A model generated the notes under the pieces. The model did no database searches. It was not told where the DNA came from and was given only the letters and a program-made list of their open reading frames with translations. A DNA stretch of 64,000 nucleotides from an uncultured Chloroflexia bacterium (GTDB lineage: Bacteria; Chloroflexota; Limnocylindria; Limnocylindrales; CSP1-4): NCBI GenBank assembly GCA_963828165.1, contig CAWHDR010000005.1, positions 32,001 through 96,000 of the forward strand, written 5' to 3'. Numbering within the stretch: the first letter of the stretch is position 1; each line of letters opens with the position of its first letter. A program made the position numbers and the translations under genes. Below are positions 12,295 to 49,092 of the stretch, in pieces.

Positions 12295-12310
12295 GCCGGC
12301 GGGGCCACGG

Positions 12311-40830: not shown

Positions 40831-42375
40831 GTGACCCTGAGCCTCCGCAACACCCTCACCCGGACCGTGGAGCCGGTCGTGCCGCTGGAGACAGGGCGTG
40901 TCCGGATGTACACCTGCGGCCCGACCGTCTATCGCTACGCCCACGTCGGGAACCTGCGCTCGTACCTGCTCGCCGACGTCCTTCGGCGGGTCCTCGTGTA
41001 TCACGGGATCGAGGTGTTCCACGTCAAGAACATCACCGATGTCGGGCACCTCCGAGACGAGCGGTTCGATCGCGGCGAGGACCGCATGCTGGCGGCCGCC
41101 GGCCTCGAAGGCCGCTCGACGGCCGAGATCGCCGACGCCTACGAGGCAGCCTTCCACGCCGACGAGGCGTTCGTGAACATCCTGCCCGCGCATGTATTCC
41201 CCCGAGCGACCGAGCACATCCCCGAGATGGTGGCCCTCGCCGAGGCCCTCGAGGATGCAGGGCACGCGTACGAGTCACCCGACGGCAACGTGTACTACTC
41301 GGTGTCGTCATTTCCCGGGTATGGGCGGCTGTCGGGCAACACACTCGACGACTTGCGCGCCGGTCACCGCGGCGACGTTGAACCGGACAAGCGCGACCCG
41401 GCGGACTTCGCCTTGTGGAAACGTGCCGGCGAGGGACGTGCCCTGAAGTGGCCGACCGCGCGCTGGGGCGAGGGCTATCCAGGCTGGCACCTCGAGTGCT
41501 CCGCGATGGCGCGGCGCTACCTGGGCGACCGATTCGATCTGCACACGGGGGGCATCGACAACGTCTTCCCGCACCACGAGGACGAGATCGCGCAATCCGC
41601 GCCGCTCGTGGGCGGCCCGCCCGCCGCGGTCTGGGTCCACGGCGAGCACCTGCTGATGGCCGGGCGAAAGATGGCCAAGTCCGCCGGCAACTTCCAGCGC
41701 GTGACCGAGCTCGCGGAGCGGGGCCTCGATCCCCTGGCGTTCCGCTACCTCACGCTGACGTCGCGCTACGGGCGGAAGCTCAACTACTCGGACGAGTCGC
41801 TCGACGCGGCCGCAGCGGGGCTCGCGTCGCTCCGGGCGCGGCTCGCGGCGCTGGGCCCGCCTCCTGCCGACGGCCCGTGGTCAGCCCCTTCCGTCCTGGA
41901 GGCGGGCGCGGCGGGCGACCGCCCGGTGGGATCGGCGTCGGGAGTCGCCGGGTTCGGGGGCACAGCCCGGTACGTCGTCGCGGATCGCGCACATGCGCCC
42001 ACAGCTCCCCTGTCCCCTGCGGGCCGAGAGCTCCACGACCGGTTCGTCGCCGCGCTCGACGACGATCTCGACCTCCCGGGCGCGGTGGCATGCGTGCGGG
42101 AGATCCTCCGCGCCGATCTGCCAGCGGACGAACGGCGCTGGCTCGTCCTGGATGCTGACGCCGTCCTCGGACTGGACCTGCACCGCGTCTGGGAGCCCGT
42201 GGCGGACCGCGCAGGCGCTGCCGTGCCATCGGAGGTCAGCCACCTCGCAGCGGCGCGCGACGAGGCCCGGGCCGCGCGCGACTACGCGCGAGCAGACGAC
42301 CTCCGCCGAGAGCTCACGGAACGCGGCTGGGACGTCGTAGACGGGCCTGGCGGCTCAGAGTTGCGGCGCCGCTGA
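40831..42375 (+). CDS. cysS: Cysteine--tRNA ligase
   Basis: YTCGPTVY..AHVGN, NITD, DFALWK, GYPGWHLECS, H.GG.D..FPHHE.E, KMAKS, DY..AD.LR. Confidence 0.96.
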   Translation: MTLSLRNTLTRTVEPVVPLETGRVRMYTCGPTVYRYAHVGNLRSYLLADVLRRVLVYHGIEVFHVKNITDVGHLRDERFDRGEDRMLAAAGLEGRSTAEIADAYEAAFHADEAFVNILPAHVFPRATEHIPEMVALAEALEDAGHAYESPDGNVYYSVSSFPGYGRLSGNTLDDLRAGHRGDVEPDKRDPADFALWKRAGEGRALKWPTARWGEGYPGWHLECSAMARRYLGDRFDLHTGGIDNVFPHHEDEIAQSAPLVGGPPAAVWVHGEHLLMAGRKMAKSAGNFQRVTELAERGLDPLAFRYLTLTSRYGRKLNYSDESLDAAAAGLASLRARLAALGPPPADGPWSAPSVLEAGAAGDRPVGSASGVAGFGGTARYVVADRAHAPTAPLSPAGRELHDRFVAALDDDLDLPGAVACVREILRADLPADERRWLVLDADAVLGLDLHRVWEPVADRAGAAVPSEVSHLAAARDEARAARDYARADDLRRELTERGWDVVDGPGGSELRRR

Positions 42376-42387
42376 CGTCCGGCCCAG

Positions 42388-42904
42388 TCAGGCTCGATAG
42401 CGCCGGCGGCAGCGTGAGCCCGAACACCCTGGCGAGTGCATCCATGTCCCGCCGGTCGTGGTCGCGGGGCTCGTAGTGTGCGTGGAACGCGAGTTGCAGG
42501 TCGGGGGTCGCGCACCGGACCCGCCGTCCGGCGATCTCCCCATCGGCATCGAGGCTGCCCGCCGGATAGTGGAACACCTCACCGGCCAGCCCGGTCTGGA
42601 CGCCGGCCCCGGATGGCCCCCACTCGATCGGGTGAAGGTCGATCCGGCCGCCATCGCTCTCCACGACGACTCGGGCCGGCCGATCGTCGAGCGATAGGAC
42701 GTATCCCAGCGGCCGCACCGCCTCCATGGCCCGGTCGATGGCCTCTGCTGCCACACCCAGGTCGAGGTCGCCGTGCTGGCGGGTCTCCCGACGGAGCAGT
42801 GCATCGATACCCCACCCGCCCGTGATCCCGGCCCGGATGCCGGCGGTCTCGAGCGCGTCGAGGACCCGGAGGACCTCGGCGCCGCCCATCCCGGCGGTTC
42901 GCAC
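42388..42904 (-). CDS. Nucleotidyltransferase, LnuA/ANT(2'')-like; stop either 42388 (after indel) or 42314
   Basis: GGWGIDALL...TR.H.DLDL, IDLHP, QL.FH..Y...D..D. Confidence 0.78.
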
Positions 42905-42907
42905 CTC

Positions 42908-43312
42908 TCAGCCGCCTCCCGGCCACATCTGGACGTGCTGAAAGTCAGAGTTCCGCCACGCGATGGCGGCCTTTGCCAGCGCAGCCCAGGCTTCCGATTC
43001 CGTGGGCCCGCCGACCACCACCCGTGTCGAGTTCCGCCCGTACATGAACGACGCACGGATCGTGAACGGCTCGCCGGATCCGGGCTGCCCAGCCGGTCGG
43101 ACCGGATCGGCCGGGGACGCCGCCACCTCCGCCGCGGAATCCACCGACTCGACGACGATGGCGATGCCCAGCGTGCGCTGCAGTCGCTCGATCAGGTCGG
43201 GCCCCGTGGGCGGCTCCGGCTCGTCACTCGCGTCCTTTGGCCGCCCGAAGAAGAACAGGACCAGCGCGATGGATCCGATGACGATGAATGGCACCTGCCA
43301 TTCGAACTGCAT
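42908..43312 (-). CDS. Hypothetical protein with N-terminal TM
   Basis: Overlaps the upstream stop (TGATG); hydrophobic N-terminus. Confidence 0.7.
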   Translation of the reverse strand: MQFEWQVPFIVIGSIALVLFFFGRPKDASDEPEPPTGPDLIERLQRTLGIAIVVESVDSAAEVAASPADPVRPAGQPGSGEPFTIRASFMYGRNSTRVVVGGPTESEAWAALAKAAIAWRNSDFQHVQMWPGGG

Positions 43313-44307
43313 CAGGGCACGCCCTTGTCGGTCGACTGGTTCACGACCAGAAGATCCCGCCGCGAGCCAAAGCGGTCGATGATCCGGTAGAAGTTGCGCT
43401 TCGACTGTCGATCACGTTCTTCGTCGGAGAGGCTCGTCCAGCCGCGATGTTCGTGCCGCTCGAGCGGCAGCCCTTCGATGCGAACCGCGCGTCGTGGTTG
43501 CTCGTCGTCGTCGGCGCCATCGCGCAGCACGAGGCTCCACCAGATATCGAGGTTCCGATAGAACCGGAACCGCTCATCGAGCGGGCCGAAGGCGGCCGCA
43601 TCAGAGCGCCGGAACGCCTGGACGTAGCCCTCGATCGCATCGACATCGCCGGGCGGAGCGTCTTCGAAGGTGCGCAGGTCCGTCGAGGTGATCCCCCAGC
43701 CTCCGACGACGGCCACGGCCTCATCGTCGAGGGCGCGGACCAGGGGCGTCACGAAGTCGCCGGTCGGCGCGAGGCTGGTGTCGAGCAGAACGACCACCGG
43801 CGCCTCGACTCGGCGGATCCCGATATTCGTCGCCGCTGCGTGCCCCAACCGCTCCGAGGTCCACACGAGCTCGACGGGGAGATCGGCGCCTTCCCCTGTC
43901 GACTCGATCGACTCCAACGCCGCCGCCTGCTCCTCGGATGGCCCGTCGGCCACGATCACCACGGAGGTACCGGCGGGCGCATGCGCCCGCAGGCCCGCGA
44001 GCGCCCGATCGAGATCCGCCGGCCAGTCGGTGGCCACCAACACGACCGATGCGAGGCCGACGGCCTCATCCTCGAAACGAGCGGGAACGTTGCGCGATGC
44101 GCCATACCGAACTCGGGCGCCCTCGTCGACATCCGGCGGGGCGGTCGGCGAAAGCGCGAAATCGGTGCCGCGATCCACGATCGTCCAGCCGGCCGCCTCG
44201 ATCTCGCCGCGCAGCCGGTCGGCCAGGGCCCAATCGCGCGCCGCGCGGGCGCGCGCTCGATCGTGCGCCGCCGTGAGCACGGTTTCCGGGATGTGGACCC
44301 GTGTCAC
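43312..44307 (-). CDS. GT2-like glycosyltransferase fused to a CysRS C-terminal-like domain
   Basis: N-terminal R.RAR..RDW..AD.LR..IE..GW..VD; then VVIVADG, LGHAAATN.G, LLDTS, V..IEG, LDERF.FY. Confidence 0.8.
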   Translation of the reverse strand: MTRVHIPETVLTAAHDRARARAARDWALADRLRGEIEAAGWTIVDRGTDFALSPTAPPDVDEGARVRYGASRNVPARFEDEAVGLASVVLVATDWPADLDRALAGLRAHAPAGTSVVIVADGPSEEQAAALESIESTGEGADLPVELVWTSERLGHAAATNIGIRRVEAPVVVLLDTSLAPTGDFVTPLVRALDDEAVAVVGGWGITSTDLRTFEDAPPGDVDAIEGYVQAFRRSDAAAFGPLDERFRFYRNLDIWWSLVLRDGADDDEQPRRAVRIEGLPLERHEHRGWTSLSDEERDRQSKRNFYRIIDRFGSRRDLLVVNQSTDKGVP

Positions 44308-44314
44308 GGCAGGG

Positions 44315-45019
44315 TCAACTGCTCCGCCGCGCCAGCGTGAGGTAGTACAGCAGGGTCAGCACCGAGGTGATCGCCGCCGCGACGTACGTCAGCGCCGCCG
44401 CCGTCAGCATCGATTGCGCCCCGCGCTTCTCATCGGGCGAGGTGATGATCCCGGTCGAGTCGAGCATCGCCAGCGCCCGCCGGCTCGCGCCGATCTCGAC
44501 GGGCAGCGTCAGGATCGAGAACAGCACCGCGATCCCGAAGAACAGGATGCCGAGCGTCACCAGCCCGGCGATCTGGAGGATCAGGCCCGCGAAGATCAGG
44601 ATGTAGGCCACGTTGGGGCCAAGGCTGGCCGCCGGGACGAGCAGACCCCGGAGCTTCATCAGCGCGCTGCCCTCGGCATGCTGCTGGGCATGACCCACCT
44701 CGTGCGCCGCGATCGCCATGGCCGCCACGGTCGGCTGCTCGGCGACCGCTTGCGACAGCCCGAGCGAGCGGTCGCGTGGATCGAAATGGTCGGACAGGTT
44801 GCCGGGCACCATCTTGATGGCCGTGATCGCTTCCTGGCCGGGCCTGTCGCCGAACGTCGCACGCTCGCGCAGGAACTCGGCGATCTGCGCACCACTCAGG
44901 CGCGCGCCGTTGGGGACGCGGTTCCAGCGCCCGTACGTGGACCGGATGTAGAGCTGTGCTCCGCCGGCGATCAGCAAGGTCGCGACGATCAGGCCGATGT
45001 ACAGGGGATCGAAGAACAC
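44315..45019 (-). CDS. YugP-like membrane zinc metallopeptidase
   Basis: LSDHFDP, AAHEVGHA.QH, TLPVE..AS.RA, L.AAALTYVA. Confidence 0.9.
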   Translation of the reverse strand: MFFDPLYIGLIVATLLIAGGAQLYIRSTYGRWNRVPNGARLSGAQIAEFLRERATFGDRPGQEAITAIKMVPGNLSDHFDPRDRSLGLSQAVAEQPTVAAMAIAAHEVGHAQQHAEGSALMKLRGLLVPAASLGPNVAYILIFAGLILQIAGLVTLGILFFGIAVLFSILTLPVEIGASRRALAMLDSTGIITSPDEKRGAQSMLTAAALTYVAAAITSVLTLLYYLTLARRSS

Positions 45020-45591: not shown

Positions 45592-48500
45592 CTACACGCG
45601 GACGATGTGCAACCTGCCCCGGCGTTCGAAGCGGAATCCGGGCCGTCCGGCGAAGTACTCGTCGACGGCCGTCCGGCAGCCTGACCACGTGTCGTAGTCG
45701 TCGATCACGAAGCGACCACCGACCGACAGCAGCGGCGCGATCCGCGTCAGGCAGGTCATCGTCGAGGCGTACCAGTCACCGTCGAGGTGGGCCAACGCCA
45801 CGGGCTCATCGAGGGCGATCGTGTCTTCGAACAGGCCCTGGATGAGCTCGACGTTGTTGGCCGCGATCGGCAGGTCGTGTCGCGCGAACGAGTCGGTGAC
45901 CTCGGTCAGGAGCTCGTCGCGGTAGCCGTAGTACGTCTCACCGGCGATGCCCCTGGACCGACCCTCGACGATCGTGGCGTAGCGGCGATGGACGTCCTCG
46001 CCATCCCGCTCGCCCGGCGGCGGGATCATCCCGAACACGTCGTAGACCTTCATCGGGCGTGCGCTCGACTTCGCTGCCGCCATGGCGATGGCCGAACCGC
46101 CCCGTGCCGTGCCGGCCTCGATGACGAGGCCGTCGATCCCCTCGGCTTCGATCGTTTCGACGGTGGCGGCGAGCGTCCGCAGGCCGGGCGCCCCGAGGTA
46201 GCTGAGGTGCTCCTCCTGCACGGCGGCGATGACGCGCTCGACCTGCTCGGGCAACGGACCAGCGGCCGGACCGATCTCGATCGGGTTGTAGAGCGAACCG
46301 GCCGGTCCGGTCGCGCCGCCGTCCGCGGTCGGCGGGGAGCCCGCTCGGTCACGAACGCTGGCGGCGTATCCCTGCCACAGGTCGCGCCCGTAGGTCAGCT
46401 CGGGATCCCACGGCTTCCCGAACGTCGCCCAATGGATGAGGCTCGGGTCGGGCACGTCCTCGAGCACCGGCATCGCGTTCCAGCGTGGCTCGAGGACGGC
46501 GCGGTTCGGTCCCGCGTACGCCAGCATGATGTCCTGGTCGTGCAGCCCGTAGCGCTCCACCCACGGCAGGTAGGTGTCGGTGAAGTCGTCCCGGCGCATT
46601 CGATCCAGATCGAGGACCAGCACGCCGGCGTTCAGGGCCGCACCGCCGAAGCCATGGTCTCGGCCCATCCGTCGTCGGAACTCGGTCGCCGACTCCTCGG
46701 CGACGCGGCGGGGTGCCCGTTGCCACTCGCTCGCCTCGCTGACGTTGGAATCCCTCGCGGCGATCGGTCGACCGGCGAGGTTCGTGGACGCCAGCCGGCA
46801 GATGTCGTCGAGCACGAGCGTGTCGATGTCGACGTAGACCACGCGATCGATCTCGTCGAGCAGGTGCGGCAGGATCAGCCGGTCGAGCGTGGAGATCGTG
46901 ATCCGGGTCGGGAGGCGCTGGGGCCTCCCGGCGGAGTGGTACGCGATCTGGTCGCACGGCACGAACGTCATCGGGAGCGACGGGAACGCGCCGGCCAGCC
47001 ACACCTGGTACGCATCCGACAGGCCGCGACCGAGGACCCAGAGACGGAGCGGTCCAGAGGCATTCGCGACCATCGACTCGATCAGCACCGGCGCCTGGGA
47101 CGTCAGGTTCTGGTCAAAGCAGAGGACGACATCGGTGATGGCCTTCTCGTCGACCATGTCGTGCGGCCCGAACCGCCGGCTGCCGGCCTTGCTGGTTGCG
47201 ACCGCCGCAGCCACGTCGACGGTCGTCGGGGGATCGGTTACCGGAGACTCGAATCGGGCCTTCGCCTCGGCGACCTGGCCGCGAGTCAATTCGCGCCAGA
47301 GGTCGTACACCTCGCGCTCCCCGGCTCCCGCCAGCACCGTCTCGAAGGTCGTCGCGAGGAGGTCGCGGATGCCGTTCCGGAGCTCCACCAGGCGGGCGTC
47401 GCCCGGCTGCAGGCCGGTCAGGCCCGCGAATCGGATGTCGCCGGGACTGGGGTTCTCGAAGTCGACCGGAACGCCGAGTGCGGTGAGCGGGAGATACGCG
47501 TGCAGGCGCCCAGTGACCGCTCGATCGAGCTCCCGCTGATAGGCCGCGAGCACCGCGCTCGCGTTGCGGACACCGTCGGTCAGGGAGGTGTACCGATACT
47601 CGTCGGCCTGGTGGCTGTAGTGGCGGACCTTGCGGACATCGCGACCGGCGGCCTTGGTCGGACGATCGATGACCCCGACGACGCCGTTGCCACGGTATGC
47701 CGCTTCGCGCGGCGGGAACAACATGTCGAGTGTCGTGGTCAGGCAGCCGCTGAAGAACGCGTCGATGCCGGCGCTCAGCAGCAGGAACACCGTGCTCCAA
47801 TCGCGGCAGCCGACCGGTCCGTGCCGGCGCAGGTAGTCCTGGGCCTCGTCGGTCAGCATGTCCAGCCGATTGACGTGGAACGAGATGAACAGCGGGCGGA
47901 TGTTGGGGTGGTACGGGAAGTCGTACCGAAGGTCGAAGAGCGGGTGCATGTGCCAGCCGAAGGCGATCATCCAGGTTCCTTCAGGGACGTTGCCGCCGCT
48001 GCTGAACTCCCGATCGACCGGTACGAGGTGCACCGATCCCTTCGCGTCGGGTACGCGAAGATCGGGCTGGATCCGTTCCTGAAGCTCCGTCGCCAGCGCC
48101 CCGAGCCCGTCGTCGCCGGAGAACGTCACGTCGGTGTGCCGGGCGAGGTTGCCGAGAAGGGCCAGCGTCTGGATGTAGTCGCCGAGATTGCCCGATGTCA
48201 GCAGGTGATCCGGTGTCTGGTAGCCCATGACCGCGATCGGGATCGAGCCAGCCGGGACCTCCCGTGGTCGGAGGTCGAGCCACCCCTCGATCAGGGTCCA
48301 CGAGTATCGCCGCGGCTCGTCGAGATCCACCGATGGGCGCCGACGGAGCTCCGCCACCAGTTCGGCGGCACGTTCTCGCTCCCCGAAGACGAGGAAGCGA
48401 CCGGCGAGGTCGACCAGGATGTCCGCGGGCATGGTGTCGGTGGGAGCGCCGATGGTCAGTGCGCGCTGACGGGCCTCGGCGGACCCGTCGGCCAGGGCCC

Positions 48501-49092
48501 CATCGACCGCTTCGACCGGGATGAACGTCGCCAGCGCGGCGTCCTCGAGATCGCGGATCCTGGTCCAGGCCCGAACGAATTGCCGTCGACGATGCAGGAG
48601 CAGCGCATGCCCCATGGCCGAAGCGGCGGCGCCACCTGGCAGGCCGCCAGCGCCCTCGGCGATCGCCCAGGCGTCGCTGAACTCCTTGGCTTCGGCCAGG
48701 GTCGCCACGCTCCGGGTCACGGCACGCTCGAGCGGCTCGCCACGCGCGATCGCCTCGGCCAGGACGGCCTGGCCTCGTTGCCGGCCCGCCTGCTTGACGG
48801 CCTTGGGCGCGACGGCCGGGTCCAGGCGTGGCCGCTCGGTCAGGGCGCCCGGCCCGAACACCGCCTTGGCAAGTCGCGACCACTCGCCGACGTACCAGGA
48901 GTCCGGCCGCTTGGTCCCCGCCGCGAGACCAGAAGCGTGCGTCGTGGCCGTCCCGGAGGCCGGGCGGCCGGTCCGGCTGCGGACCACTGATGCGGCTCGC
49001 CGCCGCACCTTGCGGAGCGCGTCGCCCCTCGTCTCGGAGCGTCCGAGGTCCGCCAGCAATCGACGGACGGACGCTACTTGCCTGGCATTCAC
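45592..49092 (-). CDS. Multidomain fusion: pyruvyltransferase-like + GT8 + TylF/MycF O-methyltransferase
   Basis: NLGDYIQ/GCRD/RLH; YVDID/NAGVL/DQD/IHW..KPW; E.GT.RGGS/D.F.M.P/HLDGDWY.ST/IDDY. Confidence 0.8.
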   Translation of the reverse strand: MNARQVASVRRLLADLGRSETRGDALRKVRRRAASVVRSRTGRPASGTATTHASGLAAGTKRPDSWYVGEWSRLAKAVFGPGALTERPRLDPAVAPKAVKQAGRQRGQAVLAEAIARGEPLERAVTRSVATLAEAKEFSDAWAIAEGAGGLPGGAAASAMGHALLLHRRRQFVRAWTRIRDLEDAALATFIPVEAVDGALADGSAEARQRALTIGAPTDTMPADILVDLAGRFLVFGERERAAELVAELRRRPSVDLDEPRRYSWTLIEGWLDLRPREVPAGSIPIAVMGYQTPDHLLTSGNLGDYIQTLALLGNLARHTDVTFSGDDGLGALATELQERIQPDLRVPDAKGSVHLVPVDREFSSGGNVPEGTWMIAFGWHMHPLFDLRYDFPYHPNIRPLFISFHVNRLDMLTDEAQDYLRRHGPVGCRDWSTVFLLLSAGIDAFFSGCLTTTLDMLFPPREAAYRGNGVVGVIDRPTKAAGRDVRKVRHYSHQADEYRYTSLTDGVRNASAVLAAYQRELDRAVTGRLHAYLPLTALGVPVDFENPSPGDIRFAGLTGLQPGDARLVELRNGIRDLLATTFETVLAGAGEREVYDLWRELTRGQVAEAKARFESPVTDPPTTVDVAAAVATSKAGSRRFGPHDMVDEKAITDVVLCFDQNLTSQAPVLIESMVANASGPLRLWVLGRGLSDAYQVWLAGAFPSLPMTFVPCDQIAYHSAGRPQRLPTRITISTLDRLILPHLLDEIDRVVYVDIDTLVLDDICRLASTNLAGRPIAARDSNVSEASEWQRAPRRVAEESATEFRRRMGRDHGFGGAALNAGVLVLDLDRMRRDDFTDTYLPWVERYGLHDQDIMLAYAGPNRAVLEPRWNAMPVLEDVPDPSLIHWATFGKPWDPELTYGRDLWQGYAASVRDRAGSPPTADGGATGPAGSLYNPIEIGPAAGPLPEQVERVIAAVQEEHLSYLGAPGLRTLAATVETIEAEGIDGLVIEAGTARGGSAIAMAAAKSSARPMKVYDVFGMIPPPGERDGEDVHRRYATIVEGRSRGIAGETYYGYRDELLTEVTDSFARHDLPIAANNVELIQGLFEDTIALDEPVALAHLDGDWYASTMTCLTRIAPLLSVGGRFVIDDYDTWSGCRTAVDEYFAGRPGFRFERRGRLHIVRV

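Follow-up and report, generated by a model that had tools for sequence, protein, structure and literature searches.

A gene at 43312..44307 (−) of the window, the 64,000-nucleotide stretch of DNA from a soil Chloroflexota bacterium analysed here, encodes a 331-residue protein with a GTG start in which a module of the CysS_C type, as found at the C-terminus of cysteinyl-tRNA synthetase (CysRS), is followed by a GT-A (GT2) glycosyltransferase domain. This architecture emerges from the open reading frame, Pfam, the AF2 model, Foldseek and PDB matches. A complete second-copy CysRS is encoded nearby in the convergent orientation, and in other lineages the two proteins form a single polypeptide. The best reading of the module, the linkage and the fusions, which we put forward tentatively, is that of a tRNA-Cys-directed glycosyltransferase working with a dedicated CysRS.

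An anticodon-binding-type module at the N-terminus

The module spans residues 7–54 of the glycosyltransferase, hereafter GT (44146..44289, −), and consists of two helices (residues 8–22 and 26–38) and a β-hairpin (residues 41–54). A first-pass annotation of the window had pointed to a resemblance between this N-terminus and the C-terminus of the neighbouring CysS. BLASTP with the single sequence is not significant, either against the neighbouring CysS (E 3.2, 10/20 identical) or against the housekeeping CysS (E 0.34, 13/23 identical), and the PF23493 (CysS_C) match over residues 16–48 falls below the cut-off (17.7 bits versus 23, E 0.004; 21.4 bits in the genome scan). The second-copy CysRS is itself borderline for this profile, with 21.3 bits in the Pfam run and 24.8 bits in the genome scan. 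The homology is nevertheless clear at the family level. A profile built from 41 GT N-termini retrieves five CysRS sequences from the PDB (3tqo, 4.6e-12; 8qhp, 3.8e-9; 1li5/1u0b, 1.4e-8; 6ujd, 4.4e-7; 3sp1, 2.9e-5) and no other match below E 0.17, and hhalign aligns the GT N-termini with the C-terminus of the neighbouring-CysRS family over 58 columns (98.9% probability, E 3.3e-17).

The structural comparison agrees. Superposition on the CysRS C-terminal domain had been set beforehand as a test, and the AF2 model of the 60-residue module finds E. coli CysRS as its top Foldseek match (1u0b_B, TMq 0.71, rmsd 1.0 Å over 45 columns), with 3sp1_B in second place (TMq 0.69); the weak E-values of these searches (0.18, 0.9) are explained by the shortness of the query. 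As in the CysRS domain (PF23493; approximately residues 413–459 in E. coli, 1U0B), two helices pack with a β-hairpin, and the equivalents of E. coli R423, R427, W432, D436, R439, G446 and D451 are kept. R17, R21, D30 and D45, which do not vary among 46 sequences, map without gaps to E. coli R423, R427, D436 and D451; likewise, R21, W26, D30 and R33 of the window protein align without gaps to R427, W432, D436 and R439. These last four are anticodon-interacting residues in E. coli CysRS according to PMC13449415, which draws on PDB entry 1U0B and in which Arg427 bonds G34. Conservation at these positions is nearly complete among 117 family members (R21 in 116, an aromatic residue at position 26 in 115, D30 in 115, R or K at position 33 in 116), as it is for R17 (117/117) and D45 (116/117). 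The GT domains of the family fall to about 30% identity, and most of the GT domain is less conserved than the module residues. The module as a whole is present in 48/48 loci of the phylum, as judged by eye, and in 117/117 aligned family members, so that the expectation that orthologs retain it has held.

By sequence profile and model, residues ∼7–54 of the GT are thus truly homologous to the anticodon-binding domain at the C-terminus of CysRS. The module differs from that domain in its setting, since it precedes a glycosyltransferase domain and is not accompanied by the catalytic, stem-contact and helical-bundle domains of the synthetase, and also in the final G-T-x-W of the hairpin, which is replaced in the GT.

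The catalytic domain is a GT-A fold with a variant metal motif

By profile and fold, the window gene is a soluble GT-A (GT2) glycosyltransferase, sugar transfer itself being predicted. PF00535 (Glycos_transf_2) matches residues 87–212 with 44 bits, above the cut-off of 23.3, and the AF2 model of the whole protein has a pLDDT of 94.7 and a pTM of 0.90. The catalytic domain (43348..44055, −; residues 85–320) has a Rossmann-like GT-A fold, its Foldseek matches being GT-A enzymes with E values of about 1e-10 and TMq 0.46–0.57, and includes a basic C-terminal helix (residues 295–313, motif SKRNFYR).

The first-pass annotation had described an LDTS sequence in place of DxD, and this is indeed what is found: LDTS corresponds to residues 175–178, and D176-T177-S178 (43774..43782, −) aligns with the D-A-D of 6yv7. 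The GT2 DxD pattern is absent throughout, with D176 in 114/117 family members and an acidic residue at position 178 in 0/117. Position 120, that of the nucleotide-binding acid in the V-D-N-G-S region, is acidic (D or E) in all 11 fused forms and in all 3 forms of family f23; in Limnocylindria it is Ala in 101/101 sequences and acidic in 0/101, the window GT having D121 instead. The missing second DxD acid, together with Ala120 in Limnocylindria, means that an unusual donor or weak activity is possible.

A candidate metal or substrate site is offered by the H285-E-H287-R288 motif (43444..43455, −). H287 is kept in 70/71 GTs with an adjacent CysRS copy, in 9/9 forms of family f3 and in 11/11 fused forms. 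In the 21 Limnocylindria GTs without an extra CysRS, the H285/H287 motif decays (H287 in 8/21) and the module stays intact, which could mean that the module has a role independent of catalysis. Sixteen arginines are conserved in the GT family, many of them in the C-terminal helix, and would fit a polyanionic substrate.

Compared with ordinary GT2 enzymes (PcManGT 6yv7, chondroitin and heparosan synthases, ppGalNAc-transferases), the protein shares the GT-A fold, with sequence E values down to 1.5e-15 and Foldseek TMq of about 0.5–0.57. It departs from them in the D-T-S replacing DxD, in the conserved H-E-H-R motif, in the basic C-terminal helix and in the N-terminal tRNA-type module, which is unique to its family.

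The neighbouring cysS is a dedicated second copy

A cysS gene at 40831..42375 (+) converges on the GT gene and encodes a complete CysRS of 514 residues, anticodon-binding domain included; 937 bp and two small genes separate its end from the 3′ end of the GT gene on the opposite strand. The protein passes TIGR00435 (369.7 bits versus a cut-off of 340). Aligned to 1li5, it has the Cys/Zn-site segments CGPTVY, WHLEC and HHEDE as well as KMAKS; its HIGH motif reads HVGN, to be compared with HIGN in CysRS 3sp1 and HLGN in 6ujd. Since the Cys/Zn-site residues and KMAKS are kept, the second-copy CysRS looks like an intact and putatively active synthetase. Its own CysS_C module (42223..42366, +; residues 465–512) has R476, R480, D489, R492, G499 and D504 invariant in 32 second-copy-type CysRS sequences.

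The proximity to cysS noted in the first-pass annotation is real, but the neighbour is a dedicated second copy: a housekeeping-type cysS lies on another contig (C1), beside an rlmB-like gene. The tree separates the two. The fused CysRS domains cluster with the split copies, and with the sole full-length CysRS of two genomes of family f24, in one clade (support 100/99); the housekeeping CysRS of the host genome falls outside it. A predicted complex of the second-copy CysRS with the GT scored 0.02 (mark 0.32) and was used neither for nor against their pairing.

CysRS–GT fusions and conserved linkage

In 13/48 loci of the phylum, CysRS and GT are one protein, made of a complete CysRS, a single junction module and the GT. 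These proteins of about 730–880 residues, with the GT as their C-terminal half, belong to other Chloroflexota families, and more of them are found in protein databases. Such a Rosetta-stone fusion links the GT to CysRS, and the fused forms are the strongest evidence that we have. JGI labels many GTs of this kind ‘cysteinyl-tRNA synthetase’, and NCBI gives the fusions the name ‘cysteine--tRNA ligase’; both labels conceal the GT half.

Where the genes are separate, they are mostly linked among close relatives. Among the 80 closest species loci (the best 80 of 533, all of them close Limnocylindria relatives), a second-copy cysS lies within 4 kb of the GT in 65, always convergently, and in 60/68 if only those of the 80 with at least 1.6 kb of downstream sequence are considered; relatives being non-independent, these counts overstate the support. 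The 3′ ends of cysS and GT overlap in many close loci. Conserved linkage to cysS, on which the first-pass annotation had staked its proposal, is thus borne out by 65/80 close loci (best 80 of 533) and by the 13/48 fused loci. Many genomes nonetheless hold a GT without an extra CysRS; a PF01406 scan of 401 genomes, with 150 of about 650 matches listed, served for copy numbers only.

In the split forms, CysRS and GT both carry an intact module of their own, as expected if each half must bind tRNA-Cys alone. The best explanation for the GT module is inheritance from an ancestral CysRS–GT2 fusion, the fused form of which persists in other Chloroflexota.

The family numbers 1175 representatives at 50% identity (E ≤ 1e-30), including some giant multi-GT proteins that match the GT domain only. 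It is distributed over soil Chloroflexota (Limnocylindria, Dormibacteria, Ktedonobacteria-like lineages, Roseiflexaceae) and some Actinomycetota, among which named genomes encode proteins with both PF23493 and PF00535.

The other neighbouring genes

Between cysS and the GT lie two small genes on the (−) strand. One, at 42908..43312, encodes a 134-residue protein that matches no family and has a single hydrophobic helix at its N-terminus; the start of this gene shares 1 nt with the GT stop. It is restricted to the closest relatives, in 7/80 close loci (best 80 of 533), including L085, L086, L090, L096, L127 and L137. The other, at 42314..42904, encodes an ANT(2″)-like nucleotidyltransferase (PF10706), its 3′ end overlapping that of cysS by 62 bp, and is present in 3/80 close loci (best 80 of 533) and in L045. 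Upstream of the GT, at a distance of 7 bp and on the same strand, is a Zn_peptidase_2 (PF04298) gene (44315..45019, −), found at this place in 15/80 close loci (best 80 of 533). All three genes are confined to the closest relatives. Beside the fused genes, a Peptidase_S51 gene occurs in 5/13 loci; peptidase genes flanking the GT in two lineages might be a sign, instead, of a pathway involving small molecules or peptides.

A TPR-rhomboid gene adjoins the GT in 17 loci of families f1 and f3, and a two-component system, a cupin and ABC ATPases are also near it in some loci. We considered these as functional partners and judged them to be within-class synteny. In the window itself, GT8/TylF and other sugar-related genes are found nearby.

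A candidate tRNA-Cys-directed glycosyltransferase

Module superposition, module retention and cysS linkage together make a tRNA-Cys-linked function the best reading. Within it, the first-pass annotation had offered three options: tRNA modification, gating by tRNA and use of Cys-tRNA. In the mechanism that we propose, the module would dock the GT on the GCA anticodon of tRNA-Cys, to which it putatively binds, and the GT-A domain would transfer a sugar to a tRNA position near the anticodon arm, a site expected from the direct packing of the GT-A domain on the module. The same pool of tRNA would be served by the second-copy CysRS, which is convergent here and fused in other lineages. On this reading the protein would bind tRNA-Cys, and the acceptor would be the tRNA rather than its cysteine cargo. 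By the geometry of 1U0B, the GT of the fused forms would be positioned where the synthetase meets the anticodon, a long way from the site of aminoacylation. Against the proposal, the host genome (G000, an assembly that is 87.7% complete) has a single tRNA-Cys gene, with anticodon GCA; no dedicated second tRNA-Cys or variant was found in this 87.7% complete assembly. Nor do we know of a glycosylated nucleoside in bacterial tRNA-Cys.

The alternative that survives best, although we think it improbable, moves the chemistry to the other end of the tRNA: cysteine on Cys-tRNA-Cys would be the acceptor or co-substrate, the extra CysRS would charge the tRNA, and the GT held by its module would glycosylate the cysteinyl thiol or amine or pass the cysteinyl group to a sugar, the product being a glycosylated cysteine from which a metabolite or peptide would be built. 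Such a pathway would have a use for a complete, apparently active CysRS in fusion with the GT or encoded beside it, LysX (LysRS–MprF) sets a precedent for a synthetase fused to an aminoacyl-tRNA consumer, and SunS is a GT2 enzyme that S-glycosylates cysteine; the peptidases at 5/13 fused genes (Peptidase_S51) and at 15/80 close loci of the best 80 of 533 (Zn peptidase) also agree with it. Yet the GT follows the anticodon module, which by the geometry of 1U0B and the rigid model (pTM 0.90) would place it at the tRNA end opposite the aminoacyl group, and the GT is often retained where there is no extra CysRS. No conserved precursor-peptide or other tailoring genes occur near the loci inspected, and we know of no GT-A enzyme that uses aminoacyl-tRNA.

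Two further possibilities leave the tRNA unmodified, and we regard both as unlikely. The module might be a sensor, the binding of tRNA-Cys (for example when uncharged) switching a conventional GT on or off, so that a glycan or glycoconjugate pathway would respond to the supply of cysteine. The module residues are invariant even where motifs of the catalytic region drift, the GT domain resembles ordinary GT-A enzymes and sugar-related genes, GT8/TylF among them, are near in the window, all of which would suit a sensor; but a sensor gives no reason for fusing a whole, catalytically intact CysRS in many lineages, no conserved glycan-pathway neighbours appear across the lineages examined and no tRNA-gated glycosyltransferase is known to us. 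Alternatively, and just as doubtfully, the module might have nothing to do with RNA: it would be a structural remnant of the fusion or would serve to dock CysRS or some other protein, and the GT would act on an ordinary non-RNA acceptor. Its tight packing on the GT (model pTM 0.90) could serve folding alone, and in single-sequence searches it stays below the Pfam threshold. Against this, conservation falls exactly on those surface residues through which E. coli CysRS contacts the anticodon, as described in PMC13449415, and a remnant would not have retained R21, D30, R33 and D45 while the sequences diverged to about 30% identity.

Least of all do we favour a mycothiol-like synthesis of a cysteine–sugar thiol, in which the GT would build an amino-sugar glycoside and a CysRS-like enzyme would ligate cysteine without tRNA as MshC does: the pairing of a CysRS homologue with a glycosyltransferase recalls MshC and MshA, and MshC-like proteins of 392–412 residues occur in several of these genomes, but the window CysRS passes TIGR00435 and scores only 196 bits against the MshC model TIGR03447 (cut-off 485), its anticodon-binding region, which solved MshC chains (413–414 residues) lack, is complete, its clade includes the only full-length CysRS of two genomes, a GT with its own anticodon reader would be pointless in a tRNA-free pathway and no linked deacetylase is present at the loci examined.

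Comparison with known systems

Eukaryotic queuosine glycosylation had been cited in the first-pass annotation in favour of a tRNA-linked GT. The tRNA-Cys-linked role stands as the best reading on the grounds of module, linkage and fusions, but the parallel with QTGAL, a member of GT2, is one of analogy only. According to a preprint (bioRxiv 10.64898/2026.06.28.735034), QTGAL and QTMAN glycosylate Q34 in vertebrate tRNAs. If our proposal holds, the window GT would resemble these enzymes, which act on queuosine-34 of tRNA-Tyr and tRNA-Asp, in being a glycosyltransferase with a nucleoside of the tRNA anticodon loop as acceptor; it is set apart by their description as eukaryotic enzymes acting on Q34 of GUN tRNAs. 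To our knowledge, queuosine occurs only in GUN tRNAs, and neither QTGAL nor QTMAN is known to us to have a synthetase-derived anticodon reader. As tRNA-Cys has a GCA anticodon, it is not a queuosine tRNA, and the GT is unlikely to belong with QTGAL and QTMAN.

A complete extra synthetase fused or linked to a transferase is also found in LysX, a LysRS fused to an MprF-type transferase in mycobacteria, and in another synthetase–transferase pair, VlmL/VlmA; there, a dedicated aminoacyl-tRNA pool feeds a non-ribosomal reaction. Unlike these systems, the present one has a GT-A glycosyltransferase rather than a GNAT/DUF2156-type aminoacyl transferase, and its GT is attached to the anticodon end of the synthetase and, in split forms, retains an anticodon module of its own. 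With MshC/MshA of mycothiol synthesis it shares the pairing of a CysRS-family enzyme and a glycosyltransferase, but the CysRS falls short of the MshC model and retains the C-terminal anticodon module, and the GT is GT2/GT-A, whereas MshA is GT4/GT-B.

Implications

We found no paper describing a CysRS–glycosyltransferase fusion or a bacterial tRNA glycosyltransferase, in a search that covered subscription journals thinly, so that a description may exist. In databases the protein goes by the name ‘glycosyltransferase’ or ‘cysteine--tRNA ligase’. A bolder form of our proposal, on which we would place somewhat less weight and which we consider rather unlikely, is that this would be the first bacterial tRNA glycosyltransferase, a CysRS-type reader aiming a sugar at a nucleoside of the tRNA-Cys anticodon arm and the second CysRS being specialized to charge the glycosylated tRNA or to act on it in cis. 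If this were true, soil Chloroflexota and some Actinomycetota would maintain a private pool of modified Cys-tRNA.

A synthetase-derived domain at work outside translation is a rare pointer to new RNA biology. In this case, an entire family joins a GT to a tRNA-Cys anticodon reader, and many of its lineages add a complete extra CysRS. If tRNA-Cys is the acceptor, bacteria would have a new tRNA modification, and the enzyme responsible would be directed to its target in a novel way; if the tRNA-borne cysteine is the acceptor, a GT-A fold would be carrying out a new class of chemistry that depends on aminoacyl-tRNA.

The GT gene and its surroundings

The glycosyltransferase (GT) gene lies at window positions 43312–44307 on the (−) strand, in a region of about 70% G+C, and encodes a 331-residue ORF with a GTG start, the position of which is common to close relatives. 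The names of near-identical database proteins assign the source organism to class Limnocylindria of the Chloroflexota. It belongs to a row of (−) strand genes that opens with a Zn_peptidase_2 gene (44315–45019), continues after the GT gene with a gene for a 134-residue protein with a single hydrophobic helix (42908–43312; its start overlaps the GT stop by 1 nt) and ends with an ANT(2'')-like nucleotidyltransferase gene (42314–42904). The cysS gene (40831–42375, + strand), encoding a 514-residue CysRS, is convergent to this row. Its 3' end overlaps that of the ANT(2'')-like gene by 62 bp (42314–42375), and relatives that lack the 134-residue-protein and ANT(2'')-like genes inserted here have GT and cysS 3' ends overlapping by 2–11 bp. 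The (−) strand at 45592–49092 encodes a 1166-residue protein that combines, according to Pfam, a GT8 domain (residues 655–896) and a TylF-type O-methyltransferase domain (965–1146); its long N-terminal region matches no family, and NCBIfam returns nothing for this protein.

An anticodon-binding-type domain at the N-terminus of the GT

Taken as a single sequence, the GT shows a CysS_C match below threshold in Pfam (residues 16–48, 17.7 bits versus 23), and BLASTP against the neighbouring CysS (E 3.2) or the other CysS of the genome (E 0.34) is not significant. The resemblance of its N-terminus to the CysS C-terminus, noticed in the first-pass annotation, is nevertheless real by profile searches. 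With 41 GT N-termini as its sole input, a profile search of the PDB retrieved five CysRS sequences (E 4.6e-12 to 2.9e-5), the best match outside this set having an E of 0.17, and profile–profile comparison with the neighbouring CysRS family gave 98.9% probability (E 3.3e-17) over the 58 C-terminal columns of that synthetase. In the AF2 model of the whole GT (pLDDT 94.7, pTM 0.90), two helices (8–22 and 26–38) and a hairpin (41–54) precede the GT-A domain. Modelled alone (pLDDT 82), this module has as its top Foldseek match 1u0b_B, E. coli CysRS with bound tRNA-Cys (TMq 0.71), followed by Borrelia CysRS. The modelled N-terminus superposes on the CysRS C-terminal domain (r.m.s.d. of 1.0 Å over 45 columns of 1u0b_B), and at the family level the homology of the two is beyond doubt.

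The module aligns with E. coli CysRS without gaps (window residue p corresponds to p + 406), which pairs R17, R21, W26, D30, R33, G40 and D45 with R423, R427, W432, D436, R439, G446 and D451, respectively. According to PMC13449415, based on PDB entry 1U0B, the anticodon-domain residues Arg427, Trp432, Asp436 and Arg439 interact with the anticodon, with Arg427 bonding G34. We compared 117 sequences of the GT family: 71 next to a CysRS copy, 21 lacking one, nine from family f3, three from f23, two stand-alone from f24 and 11 fused to CysRS. R17 is kept in all 117, R21, D45 and an arginine or lysine at position 33 in 116 each, and D30 and an aromatic residue at position 26 in 115 each. In a 46-sequence alignment the module holds four of the nine invariant columns, despite GT-domain identity that falls to about 30%. 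A 990-residue protein from a dinoflagellate transcriptome (P0276) carries about 11 tandem CysS_C-like units with Pro-rich linkers between them (repeat unit R..E.AR...DY..AD.IRDEL...GV.L.DK.H.F), so that a eukaryote, too, has the anticodon-reader module in the form of a free repeat.

The catalytic domain

The GT-A/GT2 fold with a variant metal motif proposed at first pass is borne out by Pfam (Glycos_transf_2, residues 87–212, 44 bits, cut-off 23.3) and by D176-T-S in place of DxD: D176 is found in 114/117 sequences and an acidic residue at 178 in none of the 117. The nearest solved relatives, PcManGT (6yv7; E 1.5e-15) and chondroitin and heparosan synthases, together with ppGalNAc-transferases by fold, are ordinary GT-A enzymes. 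Also conserved are D184 (114/117), R233/R234, and D244 and D254 (113/117), as well as 16 arginines invariant or nearly so in close relatives, many of them within the C-terminal helix SKRNFYR...R..DLL. At position 120, the usual site of the nucleotide-binding acid, fused and f23 forms have D or E and all Limnocylindria forms have Ala. An H285-E-H287-R motif is conserved in GTs with linked or fused CysRS (H287 in 70/71 and 11/11, respectively) and in f3 (9/9); H287 occurs in just 8/21 Limnocylindria sequences without an extra CysRS, in which the module is intact (R17, R21, D30 and D45 each in 21/21). As the sequence groups are kin, this pattern can serve as a lead but does not amount to a test.

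Fusion and linkage to CysRS

A GT homologue was found in 104 of the 401 Chloroflexota genomes scanned (a tally including G344, flagged unpublished), 77 of these in the 322 genomes of high quality. The family tallies are 22/23 in f1, 12/16 in f3, 28/28 in f24, 9/12 in f23, 5/11 in f28 and 0/4 in f2. Most genomes are MAGs, and relatives in these counts are not independent. Many matches lie in open frames of 700–900 residues, which when read contain a complete CysRS, one CysS_C module and a GT domain, some with a His-rich tail; in one, NCBIfam recognizes CysRS over residues 57–539 as well as the GT. Among 48 loci (local tblastn), 13 are such fusions; in five the GT lies tail-to-tail with a CysRS gene that stands separately, and in the other 30 CysRS is absent to a distance of about 9 kb. 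The tail, H.H.H.WPDH.H.HPH.H, ends the fused forms of the f24, f28, f66 and f78 lineages (L037, L038, L041, L042 and L082), whereas Limnocylindria GTs lack it.

Both the module and the cysS linkage suspected at first pass are kept in orthologues: the module precedes the GT domain in 48/48 loci, and a second-copy cysS, always on the opposite strand, lies within the 4-kb downstream flank in 65/80 close loci. These are the best 80 of 533 relatives, from species-representative genomes, all Limnocylindria-type MAGs with GTs 59–93% identical. In seven of the 15 others the downstream sequence stops short of 1.6 kb, so that 60 of the 68 loci with enough flank carry this gene; in many close loci a few bases are shared by the GT and cysS 3' ends. 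Outside the close group most f1 genomes have a single CysRS gene and still keep the GT (a tally including G227, G038, G344, G173, G272 and G145, flagged unpublished); retention of the GT therefore does not depend on the extra synthetase. A TPR-rhomboid protease gene adjoins the GT in 17 f1 and f3 loci [e.g. L059 10472–11794 (−) and L066 7856–9073 (−)]; it occupies the convergent position of cysS in f1 without extra cysS and is divergent in f3.

The neighbouring cysS is a second copy

The cysS neighbour reported at first pass is present, but as a second copy: the source genome has another CysRS, of 471 residues and with a stronger CysS_C match (38 bits), encoded beside an rlmB-like methyltransferase gene on contig C1. 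In a midpoint-rooted maximum-likelihood tree of 37 CysRS-family sequences, which we chose from the loci examined, one clade (support 100/99) unites 13 fused CysRS domains, 12 split copies and the sole full-length CysRS of two f24 genomes; the housekeeping CysRS of the source genome is its sister, with HIGH-type CysRS and MshC-like proteins on more distant branches. The window CysRS matches E. coli CysRS (E 2.6e-81), passes the TIGR00435 cut-off, fails the MshC model and retains CGPTVY, WHLEC, HHEDE and KMAKS, with an HVGN comparable to the HIGN and HLGN of the solved CysRS 3sp1 and 6ujd. By these features it resembles a functional tRNA synthetase and not an MshC-like ligase. In a genome of the same genus (G333), the second-copy cysS is in two frames meeting near 12300 (L045 11462–13004), which points to a pseudogene with a frameshift or else to a mistake in the assembly.

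A third CysRS-family gene, of 392–412 residues and without the C-terminal anticodon region, occurs in L166, L168, L170 and L172 (genomes G287, G111, G165 and G138), and a gene of the same type is found some 7 kb away from the GT in two f3 genomes (L072 1574–2674 and L073 2103–3200). These genes form a clade (support 100/100), score 377–397 bits where the MshC model requires 485 and pass the cysS model as well; they could encode a mycothiol-type cysteine ligase in Chloroflexota.

Fused proteins have a single module, at the CysRS/GT junction, whereas in split forms each of the two proteins has its own: R476, R480, D489, R492, G499 and D504 are invariant in the split CysRS copy (32 sequences), and the split GT retains the matching set. 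On the simplest reading of these sequences, each activity would need its own grip on the tRNA-Cys anticodon. The convergent gene arrangement shows that the split is not a simple stop-codon fission; one possibility is that it arose by duplication followed by reciprocal loss.

Possible function

We tentatively propose that the GT may be a tRNA-Cys-directed glycosyltransferase acting on the anticodon arm, the reading that we favour, although it falls short of being probable. The module would read the GCA anticodon, and the GT-A domain, predicted to pack rigidly against it (AF2 pTM 0.90), would in fusions extend from the anticodon end of the synthetase. Judging from the CysRS–tRNA complex, the sugar target would then be the anticodon arm and not the distant aminoacyl end. 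The source genome has one tRNA-Cys(GCA) among 56 tRNAs, hence no private tRNA; the ARAGORN set also includes a tRNA-SeC(TCA) and a single tRNA-like gene whose anticodon is called as four bases, '(gccg)'.

The main rival, chemistry on the cysteine carried by tRNA-Cys, seems unlikely, although LysX-type synthetase–transferase fusions provide a precedent that it fits. It also fits the peptidase genes beside the system: Peptidase_S51 in 5/13 fused loci (one over-long L064 ORF left out) and Zn_peptidase_2 in 15/80 close loci (the best 80 of 533). The Peptidase_S51 genes (dipeptidase E/cyanophycinase family) adjoin the fused gene at L037 5124–6140, L042 2576–3262, L043 2693–3457, L076 8404–9264 and L083 7014–7793, and Pfam confirms the assignment in four of the five. 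Less likely, and in our view improbable, are a sensor in which the module gates the GT by tRNA-Cys and, equally, a vestigial module without an RNA role. A mycothiol-like role for the CysRS and GT pair is very doubtful.

Clustered at 50% identity, the family comprises 1175 representatives with E ≤ 1e-30. Most of the top 150 have 300–350 residues and match from profile position 1–8; five are of fusion length, and several are giant multi-GT proteins matching in the GT part alone. The relatives bear the names of Limnocylindria, Dormibacteria (f23 type), Roseiflexaceae and unclassified Chloroflexota. A 69-member ESM Atlas cluster, most commonly from Actinomycetota and with PF23493 on 65% of members, is a lead to possible further members. 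Protein databases also hold fused forms under the name 'cysteine--tRNA ligase' (e.g. in a Roseiflexaceae MAG), so the architecture is recorded there, under automatic names only; the literature searched, incomplete in coverage, contains no description of it. If the proposed reading is right, what is new would be a GT2 enzyme guided by an anticodon reader of synthetase origin and partnered by a synthetase dedicated to it.
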